This document shows positions 6,803 to 26,498 of a DNA stretch of 64,000 bases, piece by piece; the stretch's first letter is position 1, and each line of letters opens with the position of its first letter. The notes under the pieces are model-generated. The model did no database searches. It saw only the letters and a program-made list of their open reading frames with translations, and was not told where the DNA came from. The stretch covers positions 1,046 through 65,045 of the forward strand of contig JABMNX010000040.1 of the NCBI GenBank assembly GCA_013204405.1, written 5' to 3'. This stretch comes from Candidatus Kaiserbacteria bacterium (GTDB taxonomy: Bacteria > Patescibacteriota > Minisyncoccia > Phycocordibacterales > JABMNX01). The translations under genes were made by a program, and so were the position numbers.

Positions 6803-6894
6803 CAATAAACTCAAAGAACAGAATAAAGTATTTTTGTTACCTTATATTATACCACACCTACTTCTATTTTTGAATAAAAATAGAAAATCTACAT

Positions 6895-7038: not shown

Positions 7039-7124
7039 ATTGTTAAACTAAGGATACAACTGAATATATTACCCGCAAGGGTAGAAGTCTAACCCTTATT
7101 ATATTTATAAGGTATGGCTTAAAA

Positions 7125-7230: not shown

Positions 7231-7309
7231 GGAAATAAAAAATAGAACTCAATATCAAAAAAAGGTTACGTGGAAAAAGCACGGGTTTGAGAAAAACTTT
7301 GGTTCAAAA

Positions 7310-7519: not shown

Positions 7520-7523
7520 CTTT

Positions 7524-8123
7524 ATGAACGAGCAAGAATTATTCAGGAAGGTGTATGGTGAGATACTTGATTATGTGGAGGACGATTTACTTTTGAAATG
7601 TGCTAATTGGGGATATGGCGTTCACCAAACACTTCTGGAAAATAAACAGTATCTTATGCAGGTAGAAAAACAAGGGGAACAAAGTGCTCCGTTTATGTAT
7701 GCTGTGGCAACAGCGGTTATCGTCGGCGAGTTTGCTAAACTTGCATATAGAGACCATTTTTCTGACGAAACAAACCTTCTTTTGGACGAACTAGATTTGG
7801 AGTTTGAACAGGTGAGTGGCTTTCTCAATAAGTATATTGGTAAAGACCGTTTTGAAATGCTGGAGGAAATAAATGGTGTTAGTTTGAAGGACATTTGGGC
7901 TACGATAGGTGAGTGGAAAGAGGAGATATATAAATCACTAGTTCATATTTATAAAGAGCAAGGTGAAAAAGAGTCAGACCATAAAATATATACTTCACTA
8001 CTAACTCTGTTTGAGGAAATGGACGAGGAGACAGGAGATATTCTTCCAAGACTAATGGATAAGACTTTTGGTTATCCAGAAATGGAAGTATATGAGTATA
8101 TAAGTAATGGCTTCAAAAACTAA
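7524..8123 (+). CDS. hypothetical acidic protein (199 aa), island gene 1
   Basis: Internal ATG of ORF 7407..8123, starting 5 nt after the previous stop. No recognisable motif. Confidence 0.5.
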   Translation: MNEQELFRKVYGEILDYVEDDLLLKCANWGYGVHQTLLENKQYLMQVEKQGEQSAPFMYAVATAVIVGEFAKLAYRDHFSDETNLLLDELDLEFEQVSGFLNKYIGKDRFEMLEEINGVSLKDIWATIGEWKEEIYKSLVHIYKEQGEKESDHKIYTSLLTLFEEMDEETGDILPRLMDKTFGYPEMEVYEYISNGFKN

Positions 8124-8125
8124 TT

Positions 8126-8437
8126 ATGAAAGTTTCTATTCCAAAAGAATATCTGGGACATTTTCAAGAAGATATAGCATTCCTTACTTGGTGGAAGAAA
8201 CCAACACTACTTTTAATGAATAAAGACGAAAAAGAGTCCTTTCAAGAAACACTGGAGAAGGGTGTGTGGATACGCTTCGCGGAAGGTTGCGAATGGAGTC
8301 CTCTTTGTATGCCTATCGTTGAATTAGTCATAGAAGACGGAATAATTAGCATTCCTACCCCAGAAGACCCTAGAAGGCGTTTACGAGGTAAAAATAGGGT
8401 ATTTACAAGTGATAGAGCTGGTATTGTTCTATCTTAA
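8126..8437 (+). CDS. hypothetical protein (103 aa), island gene 2
   Basis: Starts 3 nt after gene 1. No recognisable motif. Confidence 0.45.
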   Translation: MKVSIPKEYLGHFQEDIAFLTWWKKPTLLLMNKDEKESFQETLEKGVWIRFAEGCEWSPLCMPIVELVIEDGIISIPTPEDPRRRLRGKNRVFTSDRAGIVLS

Positions 8438-8501
8438 TAAGGTGATTTGTCCCTATTGGAGTGTTATAAATTAGTATTAAGTTCGTGATAAAATAGAAGT
8501 A

Positions 8502-9092
8502 ATGACTAAACTAATGACAGTAACAAAGGAAAACGGGGTGACACAACGTAGTGACATCACTCTTACGAAAGAGACTGCTGTTACGCTGTCACAAAACATA
8601 CTTTTGGGCAGGAGTTTATTGACTAGAGAGGCAGAAAAAAAGGGAGTAGTAGAGCTTATTGGAAACGACGGAGGGCTTGTCACTGTGCCGTATCATACAC
8701 TACGTATGTGGATAGTTAGAAAGAATGTTATACCAGAGACAGGCAATGTTTTGAGGGACATTTTGGACGAAGCAAGAGAGGAATATCGTAACATCAAAAA
8801 GAGGGAAATGGACGAAAAACGGGAGGAAGTAATCGACAAGAAGTTTAATAGGGTTATATCTATGAGGACGAAAGAGCCAGCGGTAGGAATGTTCGGAGTG
8901 GTCAAAGACCCTATAACGAAAAAGCCAGTCTACATTGAGAATGTGAAACTGCTCGCAGAGCAAATGAAGAACGTACGCTTTTTGGCAGAGCGTTTATATT
9001 CAAACCGCTATGGAAAAGTTATGAAGAGTGAAAACAAGAACCTAACACTCTCTCTTTCAGACTTACGGAAGTATGAGGAGAGACAAAAATAA
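8502..9092 (+). CDS. hypothetical protein (196 aa), island gene 3
   Basis: Basic, K/E-rich C-terminus. No recognisable motif. Confidence 0.45.
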   Translation: MTKLMTVTKENGVTQRSDITLTKETAVTLSQNILLGRSLLTREAEKKGVVELIGNDGGLVTVPYHTLRMWIVRKNVIPETGNVLRDILDEAREEYRNIKKREMDEKREEVIDKKFNRVISMRTKEPAVGMFGVVKDPITKKPVYIENVKLLAEQMKNVRFLAERLYSNRYGKVMKSENKNLTLSLSDLRKYEERQK

Positions 9093-9139
9093 TACCTTCT
9101 ATTGCAATGTAAAGAATTGTAAAGTATACTGGTTTAATT

Positions 9140-10090
9140 ATGTCAAACAAAAAACTTGGTAAATTAGACAATGTTAAGTTGAGAGACATTTGGGAAAATG
9201 AGGAAAGAGATTTTTCTTCTTGGCTTATTGAACCAGAAAATCTAGCACTTCTTGGTGGCGAGTTAGGTATAGACATTTCTTTTATTGAAAAAGAAGCTGG
9301 TGTTGGAAAGTTTAGTTTGGATATTCTTGCGAAGGAGGCGAACACGAACAGAAATATAATAATTGAAAACCAGCTTGAAATTACAGACCACGACCACTTA
9401 GGTAAAATTATTACCTATGCGGCGGGGCATAATGCTTCCATTGTGATATGGATTTTTAAGGATATTCGGGAAGAACACAGACAAGCTGTTGATTGGCTGA
9501 ATGAAAATACGAATGAGGAGTTATCGTTTTTTGCTGTGAGAGTTGAGGCGTGGAAAATTGACAATTCTGCCCCTGCACCAAAGTTCCATATTATAAGTAG
9601 ACCAAATGAATGGGCTAAAACTGTCAGGAAAAGTTCTGAAGGTGGCAGTTTGGGTAAGACCAAACTTAAACAATTAGATTTTTGGACTAACTTGAAATCG
9701 TATGCAACAGGTAAAGAAGTCACATTATTTAGTAGGACACCTCGTTCACAACATTGGTATGACGTTTCTATTGGGTCGTCTGAAGCCCATATATCACTGA
9801 CTGTGAACACGAGAGACAAGATATTTTCTTGTGAGTTGTGGATAAATAACAATAAGGATATTTTTAATTTTTTGAAGGAACAAAAAGAAAAAATTGAAAA
9901 GGAATTAGACACCTCTCTTGTGTGGAAAGACGAGAATATGATTGCATCAAGAATAATACAACGACGACCTAATTCTGATTTGGATAGTGAGGAAGAAATG
10001 GAGACCTACTATGATTGGTTTATAGAAAGAACAATAGTTTTCCACAAGGTTTTTGGTAAGTTTCTTAATGATTTTAAGAATGAAAGCTAA
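9140..10090 (+). CDS. DUF4268-type protein with an N-terminal PD-(D/E)xK-like (restriction-endonuclease fold) domain
   Basis: The N-domain motif FSLDILAKE...IIIENQLEITDHDHLGKIITYAAG resembles the nuclease-like family commonly co-encoded with type I R-M systems. Confidence 0.5.
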   Translation: MSNKKLGKLDNVKLRDIWENEERDFSSWLIEPENLALLGGELGIDISFIEKEAGVGKFSLDILAKEANTNRNIIIENQLEITDHDHLGKIITYAAGHNASIVIWIFKDIREEHRQAVDWLNENTNEELSFFAVRVEAWKIDNSAPAPKFHIISRPNEWAKTVRKSSEGGSLGKTKLKQLDFWTNLKSYATGKEVTLFSRTPRSQHWYDVSIGSSEAHISLTVNTRDKIFSCELWINNNKDIFNFLKEQKEKIEKELDTSLVWKDENMIASRIIQRRPNSDLDSEEEMETYYDWFIERTIVFHKVFGKFLNDFKNES

Positions 10091-10262
10091 AGATTTTTAT
10101 ACTGCTCGAAACTTGGCAGACAAGTTAGGAGTAAATATAATGACGATTTATCGTTATATAAAAGCGGGTAAACTTAATGCTCACAAAATTGGAAAGGAGT
10201 TTCGCATTGACAAAACCGAGTTTGAGGCATTTTTAATAAAAACAAGAACAAATAAGAGGTAA
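10080..10262 (+). CDS. excisionase-family (TIGR01764-like) helix-turn-helix DNA-binding protein
   Basis: [46 protein letters not shown] matches the Xis-family HTH pattern. An alternative start lies at 10053. Confidence 0.6.
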
Positions 10263-10281
10263 AAATAATCAAACCTTTATT

Positions 10282-11844
10282 ATGGCAAAAGAAAAAAAAC
10301 AGAGAAAAACAGAGAAAAATGGGGACGAGAACTTTGAAGCACAACTATTCAAGGCGGCTGATAAACTCCGAAAAAATATAGACGCTGGCGAATACAAGCA
10401 CATAGTGCTTGGTCTTATTTTCCTTAAATATATCTCCGACGCTTTCGAAGACCATTATAAGAAACTAAAAGAAGGCAAGGGAAAATATAAAGGAGCAGAC
10501 CCAGAAGATAAGGACGAATATAAAGCTGAAAATGTCTTTTGGACACCACCAGAAGCACGTTGGACATATTTGCACTCACGAGCAAAACTTCCAAGCATAG
10601 GAAAGGATTTGGACGCGGCAATGGAAGTAATAGAAAAAGAAAACCCAACCCTTAAAGGTATCTTAACGAAAGATTATGCTAAACCTAACTTGGATAAAAT
10701 TGCGCTTGGTGAATTAGTTGATTTAATTTCTAATATAGCTCTTGGAAAGGAAACAGATAAGTCGAAAGATATTATCGGACGCGTTTATGAATACTTTCTT
10801 GGCGAGTTTGCTTCACTCGAAGGTAAAAAAGGAGGGCAGTTCTATACACCACGAAGCATTGTTGAGTTAATGGTAGGAATGACAGAGCCATTAAAGGGGC
10901 GTGTTTTTGACCCCGCTTGTGGCTCTGGTGGTATGTTTGTAAGCTCTGAAAGGTTTGTGGAAGCACACCAAGGGCGTGTAGCTGATATTTCAATCTATGG
11001 GCAAGAAAGCAACCACACCACCTACCGTCTTTGCCGTATGAACCTTGCTTTGCGTGGCATAGACGGCTCACAGGTATCTTGGAATAGCGAAGGGTCGTTT
11101 TTGAAGGACGCACACCCAGACCTTAAAGCGGACTATATCCTCGCCAACCCACCATTTAATCAAAGTGATTGGGGTCACGACATTTTGAGAAATGATGTCC
11201 GTTGGAAATATGGAGTACCGCCAGAAGGAAATGCGAACTACGCTTGGTTACAACATATGGTTCACCACCTTGCACCAAAGGGAGTTATGGCAACGGTTCT
11301 CTCTAACGGCTCACTTTCTGTTGGCGGAGTTGAGGGTGAAATGAGGAAGAAATTGGTAGACGACGATTTAGTAGATTGTATTGTGGCTTTACCAAAACAA
11401 CTTTTCTACAACACGGGTATTCCTGCTTGTTTATGGTTCATATCACGAAAACGTCTTGGAAATGGCGATAGAAAACGAACAGGAGAAATCCTTTTTATTG
11501 ACGCTTCAGAAAAGGGATTTATGGCAGACAGAACTCACAGAGAGTTTACACAAGAAGACATACAAGAGATTGCTAATACATATCACGAATGGAGGAAGGA
11601 AGGAGGTAAGTATGAAGACATTAAGGGCTTCTGTAAGTCTGCCTCCTTGGAAGAGGTAGAGAAGAATAATTATGCTCTAACTGCTGGGCGATATGTGGGT
11701 ATTGCAGACGAAGAAGACGACGGAGAACCGTTTGAGGATAAAATGAAACGACTAACAGAAACTTTGAAAGAACAAATGTCAGAAGAGGAAGAATTGAATA
11801 AAGAAATTAAAAAACAACTTAAAAGAGTTGGGTTTGATATATGA
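10282..11844 (+). CDS. hsdM: type I restriction-modification N6-adenine DNA methyltransferase subunit M
   Basis: Motif [13 protein letters not shown] and motif [14 protein letters not shown]. 520 aa. HsdM N-terminal region [25 protein letters not shown]. Confidence 0.92.
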
Positions 11845-12476
11845 GTAAAAATCTACCCTACACAGCACCATACAAAGGAGGAGACGCTTTCAACTGCCCA
11901 AACTGCGGAGCATTTGCTAATCAGTCGTGGGCAGAGCACTGGCATAATAACGAGGCAAGTTTGGACGGTCTTACTACGTCAAGGTGCGCGCGGTGCAATG
12001 ATTATGCGGTATGGAAATACGGAAATCTTATATGTCCTCAAACCTCACCCATAGAGCCACCAAGCAATGATTTACCAACAGAAGTAAAGACTGATTACGA
12101 GGAAGCAGCTAAAATTGTTCAGCAATCACCACGAGCTGCGGCAGCTCTTTTACGCTTAGCTATTCAAAAGCTTTGTGTTCACTTAGGAGGAAGCGGAAAG
12201 AAACTTAACAATGATATAGCTAATCTTGTTAAAGAGGGACTGCCAACTAAAATCCAACAAATGCTTGATACGGTTCGTGTTATAGGTAATCACTCTGTCC
12301 ACGCGGGGGTTATAGACTTAAATGATAATCCTCAAACAGCAGAAACTCTTTTCAAACTTGTAAATATAGTTACGGAGAAAATGATTACAGAGCCAAATGA
12401 AATAGACGCTATATACGATAGTTTACCAGAGGACGATAAGGAACAGATTGGTAAAAGAGATAACACAGAAAAGTAA
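11841..12476 (+). CDS. DUF4145 (HEPN-superfamily) protein with an N-terminal zinc ribbon, embedded between hsdM and hsdS
   Basis: CPNCG...CARC zinc ribbon. LRLAIQKL...[13 protein letters not shown] carries an R-x4-H motif typical of DUF4145/HEPN. Overlaps the hsdM stop by 4 nt. Confidence 0.6.
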
Positions 12477-13637
12477 ATGACAAAGACATTATCAAAATGG
12501 AATAGAGATAAATTAGGAAATACTATTGCTCTTGTAAAAAATAGTTGGCGTCCAAGTGACGAGAACATAAAATATGTTGGGTTAGAACATATAAACCAAG
12601 ACGAGCTTTCCTTAAATGGAGTTGGTGCTTCAGAGGGTTTGGCAAGCAATAAGTTTCGTTTTTCAAAGGGTGACATTCTTTTTGGTAAATTAAGACCATA
12701 CTTTCGCAAGGTGGTTAGACCAAGTTTTAATGGGGTGTGTTCGACAGATATTTGGGTTATGCGAGCTAAAGAGGGATATGACCAATCCTATTTGTTTTAT
12801 TTTATGGCTAATCCTGTTCTCATAAGTAAATCTATGGGAGCAAGCACAGGAACTCATATGCCGAGAGCTGATTGGAATTATCTGTCAGGGACAGAGTGGT
12901 ATTTTCCAGAATTATCAGAACAAAAAGAAATTGCGGAAGTACTTTCAAGCTTGGACGATAAAATAGAGCTTTTACAAAAGCAAAGCGAAACATTAGAACA
13001 AATAGCACAAGCACTTTTTAAGGAGTGGTTTTTGGAGTTTAATTTTCCAGATAAAAATGGAAAGCCGTATAAAAAGTCGGGTGGAAAAATGAGTGACAGT
13101 GAATTAGGTGAGATACCAGAGGGGTGGGAGGTTGGTTTTCTTAATGATATTTCGGAGATTACTTCTGGAAAGAGACCAGACAATAGTGTTGATAAAAAAA
13201 CTAAAACACACCAGATTCCTCTTGTTGGAGCTACGAGAATTATGGGGTATGTAGAAGAACCTTTGTATGACGAAGACATATTAGTTATTGGTAGGGTTGG
13301 AACACACGGCGTTATTCAAAGATTTTACGATAGAGTTTGGGTGTCGGACAATGCTTTTGTTATAAAATCAAAAGATTTTGTTTTTTTATACCACGTTCTT
13401 AAAAATATAAATTATGAAAAGTTAAATAAAGGAGCTGTACAGCCACTAATAACCCAGACTGATTTGAAAAATTATAAACTAGCAATGCCAAACGACAATG
13501 TTATGGATTTATTTGGAATGGCTGGTTCAGAAGTTTTCTTAAAATTAAAAGAGAACAGTTTTCAGGTTAACGTTCTTAGTAAAATCAGAGATTTTCTGTT
13601 ACCAAAACTAATGAACGGAGAAGTTCGGGTAAAATAA
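12477..13637 (+). CDS. hsdS: type I restriction-modification specificity subunit S
   Basis: 386 aa in two-TRD arrangement with conserved central and distal repeats (LPSLEEQKEIAEVLSSLDDKIELL-like segment: SEQKEIAEVLSSLDDKIELLQKQ). Confidence 0.88.
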   Translation: MTKTLSKWNRDKLGNTIALVKNSWRPSDENIKYVGLEHINQDELSLNGVGASEGLASNKFRFSKGDILFGKLRPYFRKVVRPSFNGVCSTDIWVMRAKEGYDQSYLFYFMANPVLISKSMGASTGTHMPRADWNYLSGTEWYFPELSEQKEIAEVLSSLDDKIELLQKQSETLEQIAQALFKEWFLEFNFPDKNGKPYKKSGGKMSDSELGEIPEGWEVGFLNDISEITSGKRPDNSVDKKTKTHQIPLVGATRIMGYVEEPLYDEDILVIGRVGTHGVIQRFYDRVWVSDNAFVIKSKDFVFLYHVLKNINYEKLNKGAVQPLITQTDLKNYKLAMPNDNVMDLFGMAGSEVFLKLKENSFQVNVLSKIRDFLLPKLMNGEVRVK

Positions 13638-13646
13638 GACATATGA

Positions 13647-14558
13647 GTGACTATGAAAAATATAAAACTGGCAATAGAGGAAAATGAAAAGTGGACTAAC
13701 TTGCACTCATACATTGAGTTAATAGAACAAAATTGTGATAGTAATCAGGGAGTTGCGCTTGACGGGGCAAAGAGTTTACTTGAAAGTATTTCAAAAACTA
13801 TTTTAGCTGACCGTGGAATTGTTTATGCTCCAGACGCGTCTCTTGGACGCCTTGTAAAAGACGCCGTTAGGTCACTTCCTTCTTTTGATATATTAGATAA
13901 ACAAGACGCTGATGTTGTGGTTCGTATAGTGAGTGGCTTGGAAAGCGTCTCGTCCAGTATTGGTTCTCTCCGAAACAGGCACGGAACGGTAGGACACGGA
14001 AAAGATTTACACGAAGAGCGAGAATTAGATAGACGTCTCGCGAACCTTGCAATTTCTTGTGTGGACAATCTAGCTGGTTTTCTAATGGAAGCACATTCCT
14101 CTGAACCAGACGGAATAAAAAGACTTCGCTATGAAGATTTCTCTGGTTTCAATGAAAGATTTGACGAACAACAGGAGCAAATAGAGATTGAAGGTATCGT
14201 AATAAGTCCAAGTCGCGCTCTTTTCGACCAAGATATTGAAGCGTTCAAGGAGACAGCAATTGCTTTTGGACAAAAAGAGAAGTTGGTTGACGATTTGGAG
14301 ACAAGTTTTAATTTTGTTACCACACACAACATCATTGAAGGTCTATCAAAACACAAAGATTTTTCAGAGGCACAAGTAAGACGTTTAGTATCTATATGCT
14401 CTACTAATAATCAGGTCGAGTGGATTATAGGAGACCCTGATGTTCATAAGTTTTATTCAGGAATCCTCTCAAATTACAGACATTATATGCCAACAGAACA
14501 AGCAGAGTACCTTTTTCTTTTATTAAATGAAAATAAATCTGAAGACCTTGATTTTTAG
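13647..14558 (+). CDS. hypothetical 303-aa protein in the PrrC-equivalent slot (between hsdS and hsdR), with a candidate HEPN-like R-x5-H motif
   Basis: SLRNRHGTVGHGKD at residues 108-121 (nt ~13971). No P-loop. Acidic C-terminal half. Confidence 0.4.
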   Translation: MTMKNIKLAIEENEKWTNLHSYIELIEQNCDSNQGVALDGAKSLLESISKTILADRGIVYAPDASLGRLVKDAVRSLPSFDILDKQDADVVVRIVSGLESVSSSIGSLRNRHGTVGHGKDLHEERELDRRLANLAISCVDNLAGFLMEAHSSEPDGIKRLRYEDFSGFNERFDEQQEQIEIEGIVISPSRALFDQDIEAFKETAIAFGQKEKLVDDLETSFNFVTTHNIIEGLSKHKDFSEAQVRRLVSICSTNNQVEWIIGDPDVHKFYSGILSNYRHYMPTEQAEYLFLLLNENKSEDLDF

Positions 14559-14602
14559 TACTAAGTGGACTATTTAGTGAATAGTTGTTCTAATAGATAA
14601 AA

Positions 14603-17600
14603 ATGACAAAAATATACGAAGACGACATAGAAAAATGGGTTATAGAACTTCTTGAAAAAGAGGGATATGTTTATTTATCCCCACAGGAGCAGGAAGTAGA
14701 AAGACCTGACCTAAAGGAAGTTATCCTAAAAGGACGCTTGGAACAGGCGGTGGCTCGGCTTAACTCCAATATCTCTCCAGAAGCCCGCGAGGAGGCAATA
14801 AAGCGGGTTTTTAACCTCGTTCCACAGCATTTGGTAGAAAGTAATGAGACATTTCAAACAATGCTCACAGACGGCGTGAGTGTGGAAGTCCCAGCCGAGC
14901 AAGGTGGCACTCGTGGAGAAATAGTTCACCTTGTTGATTTTGAAAATCCTACAAACAACGACCTTATAGTAACTAACCAATTTACTATTCCTTATGACCA
15001 TACTAGCAAGAGACCTGACGTAGTACTTTTGATAAATGGGCTTCCTCTTGCCGTAATTGAACTCAAAAATCCTGCTGACGAAAATGCTACGGTTCATAAG
15101 GCATTTACACAACTTCAAAACTACAAAGACGCAGTGCCACAACTTTTTGTATACAACGGTATTTTAATCGCTTCTGACGGATTAGACGGACGGGTAGGTT
15201 CTCTAACTGCTCCGTGGGAGAGATTTTATTTATGGAGAGAGCCAGATAAAAAAGAGAAAGAAAAAGTAAAACCACAAATGGAAACGATTATAAAAGAAAT
15301 GCTTCAGCCAGAAGTTCTTCTTGATTTAATAAGAAACTTTACTGTCTTTGAAAAAGTGAAGAAAGAAGATAAGAAAACAGGAAGAGTTGTTGTAGAGACA
15401 ATTAAAAAAGTGGCGGCGTATCACCAGTATTATGTAGTGAATAAAGCCATTACTTCTACTATAGAGGCGACAAGTGAGAAGGGAGAGCGAAAAATAGGAG
15501 TGGTTTGGCATACACAAGGTTCAGGAAAATCTCTTTCAATGGTTTTTTATACAGGAAAAGCTGTTCTCTCTCTTGGTAATCCAACAGTTGTCGTCATTAC
15601 AGACAGAAATGATTTGGACGACCAACTTTTTGGAACATTTTCAGCAAGCAAAGGACTTTTAAGACAAGAGCCAATTCAGGCAAAAAGTAGAGAGCACTTA
15701 AAAGAACTTTTACAAACAGCAGGTGGTGGAATTATCTTTACGACTATTCAAAAGTTTTTTCCAGAGAACGGAGGCGAAACTTATGATGAGTTAACAGATA
15801 GGAGAAATGTTGTAGTCATTGCAGACGAAGCTCACCGTTCACAATATGGTTTTGCGGCGAGAACTGTATTTAAGGACGAGCAAGCTATTACAAGATATGG
15901 TAATGCAAAGTATTTACGGGACGCTTTACCAAATGCTTCGTTTATTGGCTTTACTGGAACACCTATTGAAAGTGCAGATAAATCTACACCAGCAGTGTTT
16001 GGTAAATATATTGACGTATATGATGTTCAAGACGCGGTAGAGGACGGGGCAACCGTGCCTATTTACTACGAAAGTCGATTAGTAAAAGTTCATTTGCCAG
16101 TAGAAGAGAGTATGAAAATTGACGCGGAAGTTGAGGCGGTTGCCGAAGGGGTAGAGTTTACTGCTAAAGAGAAAGCAAAAGCAAAATGGGCGCAACTAGA
16201 GGCGGTAATTGGTAATCGTGCAAGACTTAAAGAGATTGCCAAAGATTTGGTGGAGCACTACGAAGCACGACAAGAAGTGAATATAGGAAAAGCAATGATA
16301 GTTGCTATGAGTAGGAGGATTGCTGTTGAACTGTATGAAGAAATCATTGAACTTCGTCCTGAATGGCACAACAAGGATTTTGACAAAGGAGCAATAAAGG
16401 TTGTGATGACTGCGAACTCTTCTGACCCAAAAGAGTTCCAGCCACATCATACAAATAAACAAGACAGACAAAGATTAGCTACTCGTTTCAAAGACGCAGA
16501 TAATGAACTAAAAATTGTTGTTGTTTGTGATATGTGGCTTACAGGATTTGATGTGCCAAGTTTACATACTATGTATGTAGATAAGCTAATGCGAGGACAC
16601 AACTTAATGCAAGCGATAGCTCGTGTAAACCGAGTGTTCAGAGATAAAGAAGGGGGACTTATTGTTGATTATATTGGTTTTGCGGCAGATTTACAGAAGG
16701 CACTTGCTATTTATACACAAAGCGGAGGAAAGGGAGACCCTACACTAACCCAACAAAAAGCTATTGAAGTGATGTTGGAGAAATATGAAGTGGTAAAACA
16801 AATGTTCCATAACTTTGATTATCGCCGATACTTTACTGTTGATACACAAGGAAAGCTAGAGGTTATTTTGGAAGCACAGGAACATATTCTTGCACAAGAT
16901 AATAAAGAAGGTAAAAGTGGAAAAGAAAAGAAGGAGGGTATACAAGAAAGATATACACGAGAAGTAACTGCACTCTCAAAAGTATTTGCTATCGCCATTC
17001 CAAGCGAAGAAGCTTTTTCTATACGAGACGAAGTAGCATTTTTTCAAGCCATTAAATCACGTTTAATAAAGTTTGACCCAGACCCAGAAGGCAGACGGGA
17101 AGATATAGATACTGCTATCAGGCAGATTATAGACCAAGCCATTGTTACTGAAGGTGTGGTGGATATTTTTGCAGCTGCAGGTATACAAAAGCCAGACCTT
17201 TCTGTTCTCTCTGACGAGTTCTTATCAGAGGTACAGAATATGAAGCACAGAAACTTGGCAATGGAATTATTGAAACGTGTAATTGACGACGAAATAAAGG
17301 CACGGTTAAGAAAGAACTTTATTCAAGGAAAGAAGTTATCTGAAATGCTTGAAAAGACGCTTAAAAAATACCAAAACAATCTTCTTACTGCTTCTGAAGT
17401 AATTCAAGAGTTGATTAAGTTGGCGAAGGAAATAAAAGACGCAGACGCCCGTGGCGAGGACTTAGGGCTATCAGAGGACGAGATAGCTTTCTATGACGCT
17501 TTGAGTGACAACGGTAGTGCAAAAGAGGTATTGGGAGATAACACACTTCGTGACTTAGCGAGAGTTCTTGTAGAGAAGGTCAGGGGTAGTGCAACGATTG

Positions 17601-17752
17601 ACTGGACTATCAGAGAGAATGTAAGAGCGAAGCTCCGTGTGCTTGTGAAAAGAACACTTAATCAGTTTGGGTATCCGCCAGACAAACAAGCTATTGCCAC
17701 AGAGTTTGTATTGAAGCAAGCAGAACTCTTTGCTGACGAGTGGACTAAATAG
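14603..17752 (+). CDS. hsdR: type I restriction enzyme endonuclease/helicase subunit R
   Basis: 1049 aa. Walker [16 protein letters not shown] box [11 protein letters not shown], motif [10 protein letters not shown], plus a C-terminal HsdR tail. Confidence 0.92.
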
Positions 17753-17872
17753 TTATGGAGACAAAAAAGAAAGTGGAATGGACAAAGGAAGAAAGAGACA
17801 GAATAGTCGGTTTCTTCGACCTTTTGATAAAAGTGGACAAGAGGCAAAATCCACATTTGTATAAAAAACAAA

Positions 17873-18520
17873 ATGAGCGGCAATCCAATAAATGAATTAG
17901 AAGAAAAGTTCAATGCTTTTATAAACGAAAAAGACGACCATAGATTTTTCCTGCGTCTTTCAAAGTATTTTCAATTTATTGAAGATACATTTCCTTTGGA
18001 CAACATAGTAAAAAAACTTTTCTCTTCTCCTTCTGAACTTTCTATGTTTAAGAATATAGAAGGTTTGTATAATTCTATCGTCCTACATAAATCACCTACT
18101 CGTTTTTCAATTAGTCCAAGTTCTGTGGACGGGTCTGGTATCCGTACTTTACACAAGCGTCTTATTGAAGAAGCGAGAAAATCAGGTCTTGCGAGGGTGT
18201 CTGTAATAGAAAGAAGTGTTGACGGTAGTTATACATTCAACGGGGCGACAATACCTTTTGGCAGAAAAACAATTAAATATCACATATTCGATTATCTATA
18301 TAACTCACCTAGCCACAGAGTTTCTTATGCGGAAATAGATAAATATCTTGTAAGGAATGGGTTTGGTGTAATGAAGAATAACGAAAAAAGAAGTGAAAGA
18401 ATAAGGAGGGCTGTGACAGGTTATCGTGACAAACAAAAAAAGCATTCACAGGTAGGCAATATATCCATATTAGAAATAGAGCACAATTTTGGAGTTAAGC
18501 TGAACAATCCTTTGGTTTGA
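17873..18520 (+). CDS. hypothetical protein (215 aa)
   Basis: No motif recognised. Last gene before the terminator. Confidence 0.45.
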   Translation: MSGNPINELEEKFNAFINEKDDHRFFLRLSKYFQFIEDTFPLDNIVKKLFSSPSELSMFKNIEGLYNSIVLHKSPTRFSISPSSVDGSGIRTLHKRLIEEARKSGLARVSVIERSVDGSYTFNGATIPFGRKTIKYHIFDYLYNSPSHRVSYAEIDKYLVRNGFGVMKNNEKRSERIRRAVTGYRDKQKKHSQVGNISILEIEHNFGVKLNNPLV

Positions 18521-18552
18521 GTTTGTGTTGTAGATAAAAAATAACGAACCTA

Positions 18553-18585
18553 GAAAAGCCCTATGAAAGGGGCTTTTTTGTTTTG
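18553..18585 (+). terminator. rho-independent terminator
   Basis: GAAAAGCCC-tatgaaa-GGGGCTTTT followed by TTTTGTTTTG. Confidence 0.6.
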
Positions 18586-18961
18586 TATACCAAAAAAGGA
18601 CTATTAGGGACTACTAAACCTGACTGGGAAAATATACATAGCACAACCACTTCGTGTGCAGTGCTTACAAGAGAAAAAGAAGACACGGTGTTTCGGGGAA
18701 GTCCGTGGATAAATAAAAACTTCTCCGTAAACGGAAGCTCTCTTCAGGCACAAATGCGAACGCTGGGGAAAATGTTGACCACTCGTCCCAGCCGTCTAAT
18801 TTGTGTCGGAATGGAGTAGGTGTGGGGAATGCGAGAGGTCGTTCATTCCTATCACATCAACTTTCTTCTCTCACATAAAACAACTCACAAATCCTATTTA
18901 GTAGGAAAGTGGGGCATATGAACAAAACTAGAAAAATAAAGTCAAAGATTATATAATTACT

Positions 18962-19147
18962 ATGCTACGCGAGAACAGTCAACTTCATAATAAAAAAATT
19001 GAACCCAGAAAGGGGCAACGAACTTCCTCGCGTAGCAATGTGAGGTCTCGTTGTCCCTCTTTGCGTTATGATTTTGTTAAAGAAAATCAAGAGAATGTTA
19101 ATAGAGCTTTTGATGTCCTTTTTGAAGCTATTACAAACGTGAGATAA
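18962..19147 (+). CDS. small basic ORF (61 aa) directly upstream of the recombinase gene, a possible recombination directionality factor
   Basis: MLRENSQLHNKKIEPRKGQRTSSRSNVRSR... A TATAAT-like box lies at about 18952. No homology recognised. Confidence 0.2.
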   Translation: MLRENSQLHNKKIEPRKGQRTSSRSNVRSRCPSLRYDFVKENQENVNRAFDVLFEAITNVR

Positions 19148-19155
19148 TTTTATTT

Positions 19156-20769
19156 ATGAATACACCACAGAAAACAACTAAACTTATTGCTATGTATGCT
19201 CGTGTTTCAACCTCCCACCAAGAGGAAGAACAGACTATAGAAAACCAAATGAACGCAATGAAAGAGTATATTGAAGGTAAGGGGTATACCGTGGTGCGTG
19301 TGTATAAAGACGAAGGGTGGAGTGGTGATAGTCTTATACGCCCAGCTCTTGATAGATTAAGGCAAGACGCTAAAGACAAAATCTGGGAGGGTGTACTTAT
19401 ATATGACCCTGACAGACTGGCTCGTCGATACTCATATCAAGAACTTGTTTCTGACGAACTTAGAGAAGCGGGTATTGAAGTTATGTATGTTACGGTTTCA
19501 GCTCCTAAAAACAATGAAGACAAAATACTTCACGGAGTAAGAGGATTGTTTGCAGAATACGAGAGAGCAAAAATTACTGAAAGATTTAGGTTGGGTAAAC
19601 TACGTAAAATAAAGAATGGTCACATTTTAGTAAGTGAACCGCTGTATGGATATTCTTATGTACCCAAAAATGATAAACAGCACGGTTATTATGAAATTAA
19701 CGAACAAGAAGCTAGTGTTGTGAGGCAGATTTTTTCTTGGGTTGCAGACGAAAAAATGACATTACGAGGAATTGTTAGGAGGTTACAGAAAGAGAATATA
19801 AAACCACGAAAAAGTAAGCGTGGGGTTTGGAGTACAAGCACATTAAGCACAATGCTACGAAATGAGGCATACATTGGCGAGGCACACTGGGGCAGTTCTT
19901 ATGCTGTTATTCCAGAAAAGCCACTGAAGGAGGAAAAATATAAGAAGATAAAGAAAAGTAGTCGGAGAATAAAACCGAAAGAGGAATGGCTAATTATTCC
20001 TGTTCCAGTAATAGTTGGTAAAGATATCTTTGAGAGAACACGAGCACAACTGAAAAGGAACTTTGCGCAGTGTAAAAGAAACAAAAAGAACGATTATCTA
20101 CTGTCCAGTCTTATTTATTGTGAGTGTGGTCGTAGGAGGGCTGGGGAGGGGGCTATGAATGGTAAACATTTATATTATCGTTGTACTGATAGGGTACATA
20201 GTTTCCCGCTAGCACCGACTTGCAAGGAAGGAGGTATAAACGCGAGAGTGTCAGATAAATTAGTGTGGGAGAAAATCTCAAAGCTAATGACTTCACCTGA
20301 ATTATTGAATAAGCAAATTGAAAGGTGGAACAGAAGCCAGAAAACAAAAACTAGTGGGACTATATTTAATGTTGAGTCTTTGGAGACTGAATTAAATAAG
20401 CTAAAGAAACAGGAAGATAGATACAACAAAGCGTATGGTGCTGGAGCATTTAGTGTTGAGCAACTAAAGGAGTACACATCTCCTCTGAAACAGCATATTA
20501 GTGAGGTAGAGATACAAATTGCGGAAACAAGAGAACAAGAAAAAGAGCAAAAGATTAGTAAATTACCAAGTGAAGCAGATGCCAAAGTATTTGCAGAGAG
20601 GGTTAAAGAAAATATAAATAACTTGAACTTTTCCTCAAAACGAGAGATAGTATTGTCTGCGGTGGAGAAAATCGTAGGCACACAAGAAAAGTTATGTGTA
20701 TCTGGGTATATCCCCGTAGATAATTATGTCTCATTCAAAACTAACCATCGGAATCGTTGGACTCCCTAA
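19156..20769 (+). CDS. large serine recombinase (resolvase/invertase N-domain, recombinase domain and zinc-ribbon)
   Basis: IAMYARVSTSHQEE (catalytic Ser), LDRLARR-like DPDRLARRY, and C-x2-C...C cysteines (CECGRR...YYRCTDR). 537 aa. Confidence 0.85.
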   Translation: MNTPQKTTKLIAMYARVSTSHQEEEQTIENQMNAMKEYIEGKGYTVVRVYKDEGWSGDSLIRPALDRLRQDAKDKIWEGVLIYDPDRLARRYSYQELVSDELREAGIEVMYVTVSAPKNNEDKILHGVRGLFAEYERAKITERFRLGKLRKIKNGHILVSEPLYGYSYVPKNDKQHGYYEINEQEASVVRQIFSWVADEKMTLRGIVRRLQKENIKPRKSKRGVWSTSTLSTMLRNEAYIGEAHWGSSYAVIPEKPLKEEKYKKIKKSSRRIKPKEEWLIIPVPVIVGKDIFERTRAQLKRNFAQCKRNKKNDYLLSSLIYCECGRRRAGEGAMNGKHLYYRCTDRVHSFPLAPTCKEGGINARVSDKLVWEKISKLMTSPELLNKQIERWNRSQKTKTSGTIFNVESLETELNKLKKQEDRYNKAYGAGAFSVEQLKEYTSPLKQHISEVEIQIAETREQEKEQKISKLPSEADAKVFAERVKENINNLNFSSKREIVLSAVEKIVGTQEKLCVSGYIPVDNYVSFKTNHRNRWTP

Positions 20770-21832
20770 TGTGGGGAAGTCCACATTATTTAATGCATTA
20801 ACAAAGCGCTCTGTACCAGCGGAGAATTTTCCATTTTGTACAATTGACCCTTCTGTAGGTGTTGTTGCAGTCCCAGACAGTAGACTTGAAAAACTTACCA
20901 CGCTTTCAAATTCACAAAAGACTATACCAACTGCAATTGAGTTTGTTGATATTGCAGGGCTTGTAAAAGGAGCATCCGATGGAGAAGGTCTTGGAAATAA
21001 ATTCCTTTCACATATTAGAGAAGTAGACGCAATAGCACACGTGGTGCGACTTTTTGAGGATACCGACATAACACATGTTCACGGCACTATTAATCCAGTT
21101 GATGATATTACAGTGATTAATCTAGAACTTATTATTGCTGATATGCAAACAGCCGCTAAACGGATGCAGTCAATAGAGCGAGAAGTGAGACGTGGAGATA
21201 AAGAAGCAGTTCTTGAGCACCATACTGTTACTAAAATTTTAAAGACTCTTGAGGCAGGGAATCTTGCTCGATCAACTGAACTTAATGAAAAAGAAGAAGA
21301 GGTTATTAAAGGACTCCACCTTTTGACTATGAAGCCAATGTTGTATGTCCTCAATAAGAAGGCAAATGCACTTAACTTGGACGAAGAGAACGGAGAACGG
21401 TATGAAAAACTCCTGCAATTTATTGAGGATTCACATGCACAGTATGTAATTATTGATGCGGGAGTAGAACATGAGCTTAAAGATGTTTCTCCTGAAGATA
21501 AAGATGAGTTTCTTCGTGAGTTTGGAGTAGTCGAAGATGGAGTAAGTGCATTTATTCAAATGGGATACAGATTACTTGATTTGATTACATTCTTTACGAC
21601 AGGTGAAGATGAAACACGGGCATGGACAGTACTACGGGATAGTTCTGCTCCTGATGCAGGAGCTGCTATCCATTCTGACTTTCGAGATAAATTTATTAGA
21701 GCTGACGTTGTTGCGTACGAGAAGCTTATGGAGGCAGGTTCATACGCCATTGCACGGGAAAAGGGTTCGGTGCGCACCGAAGGGAAGGCATATGTTGTGC
21801 AAGATGGCGACATTATAGAATTCAGAATATAA
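20726..21832 (+). CDS. ychF: ribosome-binding ATPase YchF
   Basis: IGIVGLPNVGKSTLFNALT G1 motif, DIAGLVKGAS G3 region and a C-terminal TGS domain. 368 aa. Confidence 0.93.
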   Translation: MSHSKLTIGIVGLPNVGKSTLFNALTKRSVPAENFPFCTIDPSVGVVAVPDSRLEKLTTLSNSQKTIPTAIEFVDIAGLVKGASDGEGLGNKFLSHIREVDAIAHVVRLFEDTDITHVHGTINPVDDITVINLELIIADMQTAAKRMQSIEREVRRGDKEAVLEHHTVTKILKTLEAGNLARSTELNEKEEEVIKGLHLLTMKPMLYVLNKKANALNLDEENGERYEKLLQFIEDSHAQYVIIDAGVEHELKDVSPEDKDEFLREFGVVEDGVSAFIQMGYRLLDLITFFTTGEDETRAWTVLRDSSAPDAGAAIHSDFRDKFIRADVVAYEKLMEAGSYAIAREKGSVRTEGKAYVVQDGDIIEFRI

Positions 21833-21877: not shown

Positions 21878-22408
21878 TTGCAGCAAATTGCTGCTTCATC
21901 AGAAAAAGGATTTTCAAAAATGAAGGGTAACAAAGGTTTCCTTCTCATAATTACTTTGTTTGTTTTAGTTCTTTTGATTGGGCTTACCTTCTTCATCAAC
22001 AAGAAGGTTCATGCAGAGGAAACAGAAATATGGGAGTGCGTTCACGTACTTCCATCTAATAACCCAAACCTTGATGGCGAACTGAAGAAAAACCTAAAGG
22101 TTTTGAGTGTCAGTTGTGTTGAAGAGAAGCCTGATCATGCAGTTATCTTTCTTCAGGTTGGCCGCCCACACCGTAAGCATGAGCTAGGAAGTCCTCAGTT
22201 CTCAATTCTTGTTGGTGTCTGGGTCACATATAATGACGGACATTCTGTGAAGGAAGGTGAGTGGGTTGGAGAATCAAATCCCCAAGAAATCAAAGGAAAA
22301 TCTGGGTTTTCTAATAACGACCTGGTCGCGTGGGGAATGGTCGCTGAAGCAATCCAGAATGGGAAAAGCAATTTCCACACAACCGTCCGGCTATTGAGAG
22401 GACCGTGA
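21878..22408 (+). CDS. hypothetical membrane-anchored/secreted protein
   Basis: Signal anchor FLLIITLFVLVLLIGLTFFI. An alternative start lies at 21920 (MKGNKG). Confidence 0.45.
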   Translation: MQQIAASSEKGFSKMKGNKGFLLIITLFVLVLLIGLTFFINKKVHAEETEIWECVHVLPSNNPNLDGELKKNLKVLSVSCVEEKPDHAVIFLQVGRPHRKHELGSPQFSILVGVWVTYNDGHSVKEGEWVGESNPQEIKGKSGFSNNDLVAWGMVAEAIQNGKSNFHTTVRLLRGP

Positions 22409-23495: not shown

Positions 23496-26400
23496 ATGGC
23501 ATCGTATAATCACGAAGAGATAGAAAAAAAATGGCAGAAAAAATGGAAAGAGTCTGGAATTTATGACACGGAGAATCGAGACACTACTAAGGGCAAAGAG
23601 TATGTTTTAGTAGAGTGGCCGTATCCATCAGGCAACCTCCATATTGGTCACTGGTTTGCTTTTGCTGTTGTTGATATATATGTACGAGCAAGACGGATGC
23701 ATGGAAAGCAGGTATTTTTCCCTATGGGGTTTGATGCGTTCGGTCTTCCTGCTGAGAATGCTGCAATAAAAAATAATTTAAATCCAAAAGAGTGGACCGA
23801 TAAAAATATCGCATACATGAAAGGGCAGTTAGAAAGTATGGGGAATGCGTTTTCTTGGGACAAGACAACTAGCTCAACTGATCCTGAATACTATAAGTGG
23901 ACCCAGTGGATGTTCACTAAGTTTTTTGAAAATGATATCGCATACCGAGGTGAAGGAATTGTAAACTGGTGCTCGAGCTGTAACACAGTACTTGCAAATG
24001 AACAGGTACTTCCCGAGGGAGACTGTGAGCGGTGTGGTAATCAGGTTGAAAAGAAAAAGATGGATGAGTGGAAGATGCGTATTACAAAATATGCAGATAG
24101 ACTCATTGATGATTTAGATTCACTCGATTGGCCTGAGTCAATAAAAGAGTCGCAGCGTAATTGGATAGGGCGAAGTGAAGGGGCAGAGATTGATTTTCCG
24201 CTTTCGCTATCTTTATATGGAGGTGAAGTTGTGTTTGCAACAAACAATCATGGGAAGCTCGAGCGAATGCAGAAACTTTTTGATGCTGCAGGGTTTTCAA
24301 TAAAATTAAAGACACCACTTGAAATTGGTGTTAAAGATTTTAATGTAGAAGAAGATAGACCGACACTTGAAGAAAATGCTGAAAAGAAGGCTCGTGCTCT
24401 TGCTGAAAAAACAGACCTTCCTGTACTGGCCGATGACAGCGGGTTCTTTATTGATGGAGAAGAGATTGACCCAGTAACAGTAAAAAGAAACGCACTTGCT
24501 GGACAGTCTGAAGAAGGTATGACTATCGAAGAGGTAGGAAATTTAATGATTACATACTATCAAAATGTCGCTAAAGCTCGAGGAGGGTCTGTTGATGCTG
24601 AATGGCATAATGCTTTTTGTCTAATTACATCAAAAAAAATAGTGTCACACACACAAACCACTCGTCCTGTTACACTTACAGACGAACCAAAAGGTGTAAT
24701 GAATCCATACCTACCACTTAGGTCTCTGTACATATCAAAAGTGACTGGGAAACACGTGCTTTTACAAAGTGATGAAGAGGAACTCGAAGAATTAAATCCA
24801 ATTATTAAAGGAATACAAAATTTATTTACACCATCGATCAAAGTGTTCACCACGCGTCCAGACACACTTTATGGAGCTACATACATGGTACTTGCTCCAG
24901 AACATCCGCTTGTAGAGAAATTTAAGGGTGTGGTATCTAATTGGGACGAAATAGAAGCGTATCAAAAAGAAACTGCAACAAAAGACGACATAGTTCGGAC
25001 GACAGAAAATAAAGAAAAGACCGGAGTCAAACTTGAGGGAGTCCTTGCTATTAACCCAGCAAACCAAGAAGAAATTCCAGTTTTTATAGCAGACTACGTA
25101 TTATCTGGATATGGTACAGGTGCAATCATGGCAGTTCCAGCGCATGATGAGCGAGATTTTGCTTTCGCGAAGAAATTTAAACTTGCTACTAAAGAGGTTG
25201 TTTCAAACAAGCTCACAGACGAAAATATTTTTACTGGAGAGGGTACTCTTATAAACTCTGGAGAATTTGATGGACTTACAAGCGAGGAAGCAAAAGGAAA
25301 AATAACAAAAAAAGTTGGGGGAGAAATGAAATCAACGTATAGGCTTCGCGACTGGTCTGTTGGCCGTCAGCGATATTGGGGAGTTCCTATTCCTATTGTG
25401 TATGACAAGGAAGGAAAGGCTCACCCTGTTCCAGAAAAACATCTTCCATGGCTTTTACCAGAAGATGTTGACTTTAGGCCTACAGGAGAGCCACCATTAG
25501 CTAAAAGTAAAGAGCTTCTTGAACGAACAGAAAAGATATTTGGAGATGGCTGGACCCCAGAGGTTGAGACCATGGACACATTTGTTGATTCTTCATGGTA
25601 TTTTCTTCGCTATATAGATAATGAAAACGGCACAGAGTTTTCTTCAATGGAGAAGCAAAAAGAGTGGATGCCGATAGATATTTACTTCGGCGGTGCTGAG
25701 CATACAACAATGCATCTTCTTTATTCTCGTTTCTGGCAAAAGGTTCTTTTTGATTTAGGGCTTGTAACAGAGAGTGAGCCGTATAAGAGGCGAATTAATC
25801 GTGGACTCGTTCTCGGACCTGACGGCAACAAGATGAGTAAGTCAAAAGGAAACGTTATTGATCCTGATGAACAAGTGAAACGTCTCGGGTCTGATGCTGT
25901 AAAGATGTATTTAGCATTTATGGGACCGTACGGAGAAACAACTAACTACCCGTGGGACCTCGGTGGCATTGTTGGAATTCGTCGTTTCCTAGAACGAGTA
26001 GATAAGATGATTGATAAAGAAAATATAATGGATTCCGAAGACGTACATCTTGAGAGGCATTTACATCAGACAATTAAGAAAGTGGGAGGAGACATTGAGT
26101 TATATAAATTTAATACAGCAATATCTCAACTCATGATTTTTCTTAATCAAATGCAGACTCTTAAGGTAAGTAAAAATACACTCGAAATATTCCTTAGACT
26201 TCTTGCTCCATTTGCTCCACATCTCACAGAAGAACTCTGGGAGAGGCTGGGAAATATGACCTCAATCCACCTAGAAGAATGGCCCGAATTTGATGAATCA
26301 AAGCTTGTCTCTGACACAGTATCCATTGCTGTGCAGATACATGGGAAGGTGAGGGGGTTAGTAGAAAGTCCTTCTGGGTCAAGCGAAGACGAGGTTCTTG

Positions 26401-26498
26401 CTTTGGTTCGAAAGGATGAGGGTCTTTCTAAGTGGATAGAGGGGGAGCCAAAGAGGGTGATATATGTTGAGAATAAGCTTATTAATCTAGTGTTTTAA
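23496..26498 (+). CDS. leuS: leucyl-tRNA synthetase carrying a ~210-aa insertion with a Ham1/RdgB (ITPase)-like domain
   Basis: HIGH motif PSGNLHIGH. ZN-1 knuckle CSSC...CERC. NWIGRSEGAEIDF. T-rich VFTTRPDTLYGATYMVLAPEH. Editing motif GTGAIMAVPAHDERD. KMSKS motif NKMSKSKGN. Between GAEIDFPL and VFTTRPDTL lie residues ~237-447 (nt ~24204-24837). In that insert, EVVFATNNHGK, EEDRPTLEENAEKKAR, LPVLADDSG and EWHNAFCLI align to RdgB/Ham1 motifs. Confidence 0.9.
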   Translation: MASYNHEEIEKKWQKKWKESGIYDTENRDTTKGKEYVLVEWPYPSGNLHIGHWFAFAVVDIYVRARRMHGKQVFFPMGFDAFGLPAENAAIKNNLNPKEWTDKNIAYMKGQLESMGNAFSWDKTTSSTDPEYYKWTQWMFTKFFENDIAYRGEGIVNWCSSCNTVLANEQVLPEGDCERCGNQVEKKKMDEWKMRITKYADRLIDDLDSLDWPESIKESQRNWIGRSEGAEIDFPLSLSLYGGEVVFATNNHGKLERMQKLFDAAGFSIKLKTPLEIGVKDFNVEEDRPTLEENAEKKARALAEKTDLPVLADDSGFFIDGEEIDPVTVKRNALAGQSEEGMTIEEVGNLMITYYQNVAKARGGSVDAEWHNAFCLITSKKIVSHTQTTRPVTLTDEPKGVMNPYLPLRSLYISKVTGKHVLLQSDEEELEELNPIIKGIQNLFTPSIKVFTTRPDTLYGATYMVLAPEHPLVEKFKGVVSNWDEIEAYQKETATKDDIVRTTENKEKTGVKLEGVLAINPANQEEIPVFIADYVLSGYGTGAIMAVPAHDERDFAFAKKFKLATKEVVSNKLTDENIFTGEGTLINSGEFDGLTSEEAKGKITKKVGGEMKSTYRLRDWSVGRQRYWGVPIPIVYDKEGKAHPVPEKHLPWLLPEDVDFRPTGEPPLAKSKELLERTEKIFGDGWTPEVETMDTFVDSSWYFLRYIDNENGTEFSSMEKQKEWMPIDIYFGGAEHTTMHLLYSRFWQKVLFDLGLVTESEPYKRRINRGLVLGPDGNKMSKSKGNVIDPDEQVKRLGSDAVKMYLAFMGPYGETTNYPWDLGGIVGIRRFLERVDKMIDKENIMDSEDVHLERHLHQTIKKVGGDIELYKFNTAISQLMIFLNQMQTLKVSKNTLEIFLRLLAPFAPHLTEELWERLGNMTSIHLEEWPEFDESKLVSDTVSIAVQIHGKVRGLVESPSGSSEDEVLALVRKDEGLSKWIEGEPKRVIYVENKLINLVF

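Follow-up and report, generated by a model that had tools for sequence, protein, structure and literature searches.

We analysed a stretch of 64,000 nucleotides from a Candidatus Kaiserbacteria bacterium (contig JABMNX010000040.1 of assembly GCA_013204405.1, positions 1,046 to 65,045; called the window below), in which the gene for a large serine recombinase (LSR) runs into the start of the host gene ychF. We conclude, with a probability of about 85%, that positions 6341 to 20751 of the window are a 14.4-kb integrative genomic island mobilized by the LSR, that the island has swapped the start of ychF for one of its own and has its recombinase gene split, and that this design is common to a whole family of islands that move horizontally.

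The island and its attachment sites

The LSR gene (19156 to 20769, + strand) encodes, in the integrated and C-terminally truncated form present here, a protein of 537 aa that ends at a TAA codon (20767 to 20769) and has an exact match on record, the recombinase of a Candidatus Kaiserbacteria metagenome-assembled genome (MAG). It has 44 nt (20726 to 20769) in common with ychF (20726 to 21832, + strand, 368 aa), which lies in the +1 frame relative to it. Pfam assigns Resolvase, Recombinase and Zn_ribbon_recom domains to the first open reading frame (ORF) and MMR_HSR1 and YchF-GTPase_C to the second. A first-pass annotation of the window had given the same coordinates and frames for the overlap, and had proposed an integrative element inserted at the start of ychF. 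The rebuilt junction, the empty sites in relatives and a same-strain contig, all described below, bear this proposal out. Our analysis goes beyond it in two respects: the start of ychF is replaced by the element and not merely abutted, and the recombination site sits within the recombinase ORF itself.

The YchF protein of the window starts with MSHSKLTIGIVG and has MSHSKLTIG in place of MSLSIG. Its gene is a chimera, of which the first 8 codons and base 1 of codon 9 come from the element and the rest from the host, and the final 5 residues of the LSR (NRWTP) are ychF DNA read in another frame. Where, then, is the original start of ychF? It lies orphaned at 6324 to 6359 (+ strand), just past a flavodoxin-like gene (5713 to 6309), where ATGTCACTATCAATCGG (6324 to 6340; ATG..ATCGG) encodes MSLSIG and then continues into unrelated element DNA, with a stop after 11 codons. 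Joining the flank left of 6340 to the flank right of 20752 yields ATGTCACTATCAATCGG followed directly by AATCGTTGG, which encodes MSLSIGIVGLPNVGKST, the exact N terminus of all close YchF relatives (78 to 88% identical; all 365 aa). At the LSR end, the sequence reads ...ATGTCTCATTCAAAACTAACCATCGG up to the border and AATCGTTGGACTCCC beyond it. The island measures 14,411 bp (core counted once) and is inserted at codon 6 of ychF, a Gly codon ahead of the P-loop, where attB reads ...ATGTCACTATCAATC-GG-AATCGTTGG....

Comparison of the two borders with each other and with empty sites places attL at 6315 to 6364 (+ strand; host B arm, central GG at 6339 to 6340, element P' arm) and attR at 20726 to 20775 (+ strand; element P arm at 20726 to 20749, central GG at 20750 to 20751, host B' arm). 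The core that they share is the 5-nt ATCGG (6336 to 6340 and 20747 to 20751); sequence comparison confines the crossover to it, and from the centre of the dyad we infer a cut at GG. The predicted attB is AATCATGTCACTATCAATCGGAATCGTTGGACTCCC and the predicted attP is ATGTCTCATTCAAAACTAACCATCGGTATGGTCAGAACACAATAAGACAT. The imperfect inverted repeats about a central dinucleotide that the first-pass annotation had anticipated were found at both borders, the dinucleotide being GG. Judged from its sequence, the P arm has a triple role as recombinase half-site, as LSR codons 524 to 532 and as surrogate start codons of ychF. Because the arm encodes the replacement start in another frame, ychF stays intact after integration.

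Presence or absence among close relatives, with a precise att junction, was found at two levels. In related genomes (loci L003 to L008) the site is empty, with a 365-aa ychF 5 to 10 nt after the flavodoxin gene. Relatives without the island, the comparison suggested at first pass, have the same synteny as the window on both sides: RNHCP and small ORFs upstream, and a 147- to 150-aa ORF, DUF5671, leucyl-tRNA synthetase (LeuRS), a sigma factor, DUF8128 and YceG downstream. (The 176-aa ORF at 21878 to 22408 was not on record in our look-up, and the DUF5671 gene was used for the right flank instead.) The DNA of these empty sites, ATGTCACT(A/T)TCAAT(C/T)GGAAT(T/C)GT..., equals the left part of attL joined to the right part of attR. 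At the level of the strain, Logan contig SRR28106031_4056 (14,466 bp) is identical to window positions 6311 to 20776 with 0 mismatches and comprises the island plus 30 nt per side. Left-flank contigs from two sibling runs end exactly at 6340, and SRR28106031 has a right-flank contig that begins precisely at 20747. Contig SRR28106037_12391 (L103), from the same strain, starts with AATTAACACAATCATGTCACTATCAATCGGAATCGTTGGACTCCC, which is the predicted attB, and has 1 other mismatch in 5.7 kb. Hence, this strain exists both with the island and without it. Graph logic suggests that the contigs break at 6340, 6311, 20776 and 20747 because the two alleles coexist in a de Bruijn graph with k=31.

A tRNA gene as the target was excluded, as ARAGORN found no tRNA or tmRNA in the 64-kb window. 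The island does not stand out from its flanks in GC content or skew. Nearly all genes of the window (1 to 64000) are on the + strand, and the cumulative GC skew climbs steadily along it.

The split recombinase gene

By its sequence, the enzyme has every testable feature of a large serine recombinase. It possesses a resolvase catalytic domain with the serine nucleophile (PF00239, E=5e-29), in which R16 and S18 do not vary among 30 relatives and line up with the catalytic domain of the TP901-1 integrase. The recombinase and zinc-ribbon domains (PF07508 and PF13408) score above cut-offs, and the zinc-ribbon residues C322, C324, C343 and C356 are invariant in the alignment of the 30 relatives. An AlphaFold2 model of a full-length relative, with a mean predicted local distance difference test score (pLDDT) of 71, has the usual LSR domains and long helices at 377 to 463. 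The best Foldseek matches of this model are the full-length serine integrases 9y66, 9dxf, PhiC31, Bxb1 and 4kis. The att sites likewise have the form used by serine integrases, with an attP dyad of ~50 bp, a non-palindromic centre and a shorter, less symmetric attB.

The centre of attP, an invariant GG, lies inside the LSR ORF at R532 (CGG codon), a residue invariant among the relatives, and integration therefore severs a conserved C-terminal tail from the LSR. In the window, the last 45 LSR codons are found 14 kb away at attL, where the detached 3' end (6341 to 6478, + strand) consists of 45 codons and a stop and encodes YGQNTIRHYSTKNERLIPFSFTIKLPPPMKRGVDYGFRPKEPISY (6341 to 6475). This tail is in frame with R532 only in the attP form; when integrated it has no in-frame start codon and is out of frame with the orphaned ATG of ychF. 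Beyond R532 the relatives fall into two classes. The first has short unrelated tails, which are ychF P-loop DNA in another frame, for example RHCWFAKCRQINTF from ATCGGCATTGTTGGTTTGCCAAATGTCGGCAAATCAACACTTTT; the second has a longer conserved tail with the pattern R-[HY]-G-x-N-T-x-R-H ... IPFxFxIxLPPP .... Searches with a profile of the tail located it upstream at attL in ychF-linked loci, and contiguous with the LSR in loci without ychF (Bradyrhizobium, an alphaproteobacterium, Limisphaerales, Bacteroidota and Nemorincola). A protein search with the LSR C terminus plus tail as the query yielded 7 weak fragments and nothing more, as the word index is insensitive to a region this variable.

The tail is open in all 25 attL copies, with 28 to 52 codons, and its length differences are whole codons. 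Codon-position entropy distinguishes two parts: the 12-codon IPF motif (IPFxFxIKLP) has values of 0.71/0.43/1.52, a coding signature, and the 24-nt P' arm has values of 0.98/0.67/0.71, without periodicity, the signature of a DNA site. The open tail in 25 of 25 diverged elements, together with third-position wobble, implies continuing selection in the rejoined state. A rejoined form was seen in one relative. A degenerate attP pattern matched 11 metagenome stretches, of which 5 are full-length LSR genes of 570 to 581 aa. Another of the 11, metagenome contig L096, is a true attP junction of a related element, with the LSR 3' end joined to the left end of the island: the L028 island matches it with its LSR 3' end over nt 1 to 766 and with its left end over nt 759 to 2214, and the ORF reads through the core into ...LIPFSFTIKLPPPQYKRAIVARNRQGQIVHSIPV. 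In the AlphaFold2 model of the full-length relative, a disordered linker (527 to 542) is followed by the tail motif as a predicted beta strand (546 to 555, pLDDT 66 to 77).

LSR genes with a contiguous tail are present in loci L015, L018, L023, L039, L042, L044, L049, L062, L063, L074, L081, L088 and L094 to L099. A tandem insertion as the origin of the copies in non-CPR chromosomes is not supported, there being no second LSR or ychF within 10 kb. The contiguous LSR of L018 adjoins GmrSD and SMODS-type defence genes. In the literature that we searched, we found no report of a serine integrase whose crossover lies inside its own ORF.

The family of islands, its cargo and its RNA

How widespread is this arrangement? 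A scan of one genome per species (185,579 species genomes) with the alignment of the 30 LSR relatives turned up 135 stretches that code for a relative, from which 80 loci were retained. ychF begins within the last LSR codons in 64 of the 80, at the same junction, ...ATGTCnnGTTCAAAACTAnCnATC followed by GGnATnGTnGG..., so the overlap of LSR and ychF is structural and not due to chance. The Patescibacteria lineages named in the records are Kaiser-, Buchanan-, Komeili-, Yanofsky-, Doudna-, Jorgensen-, Nomura-, Wolfe-, Levy- and Gracilibacteria, among others, and the loci with the junction include a complete genome (CP011209). A few loci have labels from outside the CPR (candidate phyla radiation), and some of these are probably mis-binned, since their YchF is 68 to 72% identical to the Kaiserbacteria protein.

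The left border lies inside the 10-kb flank in 24 loci and always consists of host sequence, an orphaned ychF start (ATG..ATnGG) and the conserved P' arm (consensus of 25 attL sites, YATGGnGTGAACACAAccnGACAT); these islands are 3.5 to 14.4 kb in size. The 24 attP sites that could be reconstructed are 50-bp imperfect dyads, ATGTC-N19-GG-N19-GACAT, with ATGTC at -24..-20, GACAT at +21..+25 and, in the exact centre of the dyad, an invariant GG. The reconstructed attB is asymmetric, with symmetry at offsets 2 to 3 only; its left arm is the short ychF start and its right arm the DNA for GIVGLPNVG. Over 1225 pairs, LSR identity shows no correlation with that of the host YchF (Spearman rho 0.07), as illustrated by L024 and L031 (LSR 98%, YchF 69% identical) and by L084 and L085 (LSR 52%, YchF 80%). 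Hence, the LSR is not a core gene and the elements move between diverged hosts. On this sequence record, the family resides mostly in Patescibacteria and has spread horizontally. No description of a ychF-targeting LSR family was found in the literature searched. A 2025 survey of Patescibacteria reported genomic islands, including one with type I restriction-modification, but named no integration mechanism and did not mention recombinases (PMC12455944).

Several members depart from the common pattern. One LSR relative (P0029, 648 aa) has no early stop past the junction, continues for ~100 more residues and ends in true YchF sequence, VRIFEDDNIIHVHG; it is either an LSR-YchF fusion or a frameshifted gene call. 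Locus L055 has two attL sites 1 kb apart (2362 to 2470 and 3398 to 3520), L074 has an attL-like site (17650 to 17740) 6 kb downstream of its contiguous LSR, and L015 has a second copy of attP plus tail (1263 to 1427) 10 kb upstream, its LSR tail bearing a 1-nt frameshift. The extra att-like sites in these three loci suggest serial insertions or rearrangements.

Pfam and PADLOC predict that the cargo of the window island is directed against phages, with type I restriction-modification, PDC-S11, PD-T7-4 and an Abi-like gene besides unknown ORFs. The first-pass annotation was correct in describing an accessory region with unknown genes and type I restriction-modification, and its size of 12 kb has to be corrected to 14.4 kb including the recombinase. 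According to gene calls and domain searches, the cargo (7524 to 18520, all on the + strand) begins with three unknown ORFs, followed by PDC-S11/DUF4268 (9140 to 10090), a HTH_17 ORF (10080 to 10262), hsdM (10282 to 11844), PD-T7-4/DUF4145 embedded in the type I system (11841 to 12476), hsdS (12477 to 13637), an Abi_C/AbiJ-like gene (13653 to 14558) and hsdR (14603 to 17752), and ends with two unknown ORFs.

A consensus scan located a terminator-like hairpin (12-bp stem and T run; 18551 to 18580, + strand) at the end of the cargo array and a promoter-like site, TAGAAA-17-TATAAT (18929 to 18957, + strand), and it found no terminator-like site between the LSR and ychF. These consensus matches are weak evidence for a possible transcription unit, bracketed by the two signals, of a small ORF, the LSR and ychF. 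The small ORF (18962 to 19147, + strand, 61 aa) is directly upstream of the LSR and has homologues at the same position in 8 to 11 loci. More generally, 55 of 82 loci have a small ORF whose end lies ≤45 nt ahead of the LSR start, of an HTH_17 excisionase-like type in 46 and of the 61-aa type in 11. In the window, the 61-aa type takes this place and the HTH_17 ORF is elsewhere, in the cargo. We regard these small ORFs as candidate directionality factors or regulators.

The left part of the island carries a LOOT RNA (Rfam RF03000) at 7086 to 7206 (+ strand), which scores 79.8 bits against a gathering score of 46.4 and covers the full-length model (1 to 121). A model built from seven hits was run over 1.55 Mb of loci and found 32 copies, one in the window and 31 in loci L010 to L086, all of them inside ychF-linked islands and upstream of the LSR; there were none in the downstream 10-kb host flanks, the empty-site loci or the contiguous-LSR loci of the same 1.55 Mb. 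The usual place of LOOT is the 5' end of the variable cargo operon. The window genes downstream of LOOT have no homologues in other islands, so LOOT is bound to no one cargo gene. The literature searched assigns it no function.

Between the detached tail and LOOT, ~600 nt (6479 to 7085) include several strong hairpins, such as GGCTACCCCTATTGGGGTAGC near 6540. This segment has no homologue and no Rfam match, and its DNA lacks conservation across the other islands; when the left end of the island (6341 to 7100) was searched for conserved DNA, only the tail emerged. A gene call in the Logan contig places a small ORF of 47 aa, without a Pfam match, on the - strand at 6895 to 7038. Outside the island, the LeuRS gene (23496 to 26498, + strand) encodes a protein of 1000 aa with a Ham1p_like (ITPase-type) segment at residues 245 to 321 (Pfam E=8e-15); LeuRS of the closest relatives has 794 to 815 aa, with no Ham1p_like match listed.

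Competing explanations and related systems

Several points weigh against our interpretation of an LSR-mobilized island with a split recombinase. All of the evidence comes from assembled sequence. The attP junction in L096 belongs to a relative and might, in principle, be one between tandem copies, and several MAG loci probably have taxon labels that cannot be relied on. The promoter-like sites are not enriched over the expectation from shuffled sequence. AlphaFold2 confidence for the tail is moderate, and the partner strand of the predicted beta strand was not read out. Chromosomal LSR relatives outside the CPR keep the tail contiguous, most of them with an attP-like dyad in the ORF and with no ychF behind; in these copies the crossover site may be elsewhere, and the attP in the ORF may be specific to the ychF-targeting clade. 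Finally, no attP circle belonging to this very element was observed.

The last point would also suit a fixed relic, in which one past LSR insertion is now immobile and the tail at attL is a recent remnant, and so would the decay or rearrangement at some loci (the partial LSR of L091, the double attL of L055 and the frameshift of L015). We give this reading little credence, as the same strain has been found with and without the island at a base-perfect junction, the LSR ORF is unbroken and has its catalytic residues, the tail is open in every diverged element with wobble at third positions, and the attP junction of a related element exists.

Could the segment to the right of attL instead act as DNA or RNA, for example as accessory sites, a promoter or an origin, with the true end of the LSR near codon 532? 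Its first 24 nt, the P' arm, are indeed conserved as DNA without codon periodicity, and the tail is never translated when integrated. Past the arm, however, conservation is at the amino acid level, with synonymous third positions and in-frame indels. Full-length ORFs with the same motif are present in distant bacteria and in L096, and the motif is modelled as a structured strand. We consider such a role quite improbable.

Many characterized large serine recombinases are phage integrases, and the small HTH_17 ORF found next to the integrase resembles an excisionase, both of which would fit a prophage or phage satellite with the LSR as its integrase. Pfam and PADLOC found no capsid, terminase, portal or lysis genes over the island, however; the cargo is restriction-modification, an Abi-type gene and unknown ORFs, the islands span only 3.5 to 14 kb, and the attP pattern had 0 matches in 2.9 million viral contigs, so that a phage origin is very improbable. 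Next to untenable is the alternative offered at first pass, the ordinary compact gene overlap of a reduced genome, with the LSR a vertically inherited, domesticated or housekeeping gene beside ychF: the recurrence of the overlap in 64 of 80 loci and a base composition equal to that of the flanks would agree with it, but the whole 14.4-kb segment is missing from the nearest relatives and from the same strain as found in a sibling sample, where a 365-aa ychF comes straight after the flavodoxin gene, an orphaned ychF start is left at attL, LSR and host YchF identities are uncorrelated, just 135 stretches with an LSR relative exist among the genomes scanned, and the overlap elsewhere always comes with a variable island and attL, incongruent with host phylogeny, with neither an overlap in relatives without a variable island nor an LSR that is a core gene among our findings.

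Returning to the mobile island, we hypothesize that the excised circle restores an LSR of ~577 aa, that this full-length form is made only there and that it performs integration. The chromosomal 537-aa form without the tail would excise the element, probably with the small upstream protein as directionality factor, or be inert. ychF may be expressed by read-through from the promoter of the small ORF and LSR within the element, and the cargo would provide anti-phage defence. The use of P-loop DNA as the B' arm would offer a landing site conserved at the nucleotide level across very distant hosts. A bolder version, which we find possible but doubtful, is that the attP in the ORF is a state switch, with the full-length enzyme confined to the circle, its beta-strand tail required for integration or licensing it and the truncated form only excising or silent, that the family is the main site-specific vehicle of defence genes in Patescibacteria and uses the ychF P-loop, with its universal conservation, as a landing site across phyla, and that LOOT is its dedicated regulatory RNA.

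The type of island is itself already known: it is a site-specific integrative island driven by an LSR and not a prophage. With serine-integrase elements and prophages (PhiC31, Bxb1, TP901-1, A118/LI, SPbeta SprA and SCCmec Ccr) it has in common the domains, including a zinc ribbon with an inserted coiled coil, the ~50-bp imperfect dyad of attP about a central dinucleotide that is not palindromic, a short and asymmetric attB located within a gene, the lack of long direct repeats and an integrase at one end of the element. It differs from them in that attP lies within the integrase ORF and integration swaps the C terminus, that the P arm doubles as the code for a new 5' end of the target gene, that insertion is into the P-loop region of a GTPase gene of universal conservation, in mainly patescibacterial hosts, and that the cargo is defence genes and LOOT RNA instead of a phage genome.

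In the SSV1-type integrases of Sulfolobus fuselloviruses, attP is in the int coding sequence, integration partitions int and only the episome encodes the full protein. The likeness, an attP within an integrase gene that is split on integration, is one of analogy: those enzymes are tyrosine recombinases, split near the 5' end, with tRNA targets and archaeal hosts, whereas ours is a serine recombinase. A second apparent analogy is the integration-dependent immunity of some mycobacteriophages, where a tyrosine integrase acts on an attP inside the repressor gene and the removed tail is a degradation tag. There, too, the C terminus of an element-encoded protein differs between integrated and free states, but it is the repressor that is affected and not the recombinase itself. 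Islands that target tRNA genes also bring along a stand-in copy of the target end that they interrupt and leave the gene functional; here, the copy is of the 5' end of a protein-coding gene, including the start codon, and overlaps the integrase frame. A prophage-like element of Streptococcus pneumoniae between dnaN and ychF excises spontaneously, with a junction that alters ychF expression (PMC6375853). It shares the position immediately upstream of ychF, but it occupies the ychF promoter region between 14-bp direct repeats, without coding insertion or replacement of the N terminus, and is not linked to this LSR family. Two features are unusual here, the surrogate start codons of the target gene and the attP inside the integrase ORF, and the wide distribution in Patescibacteria had not been described before.

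These findings reveal an unusual case of overlapping coding, in which one 24-nt arm is a recombinase half-site, the end of the conserved LSR body and the start of an essential-type host gene, and in which a crossover inside the recombinase ORF makes the integrated and free states encode different isoforms. They give LOOT, an orphan metagenomic RNA, its first genomic context as a frequent passenger of ychF-targeting islands, and they provide naturally paired serine integrases and att sites aimed at a sequence conserved across bacteria, which is of practical use. If the bolder switch version is true, direction and commitment would be set by the state of the DNA itself and not just by a separate directionality factor. 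To our knowledge, the mobile elements of CPR bacteria (Patescibacteria) are poorly described. For their genomic islands, the ychF-targeting family offers a concrete and widespread integration mechanism, with attB, attP, attL and attR at base-pair resolution.

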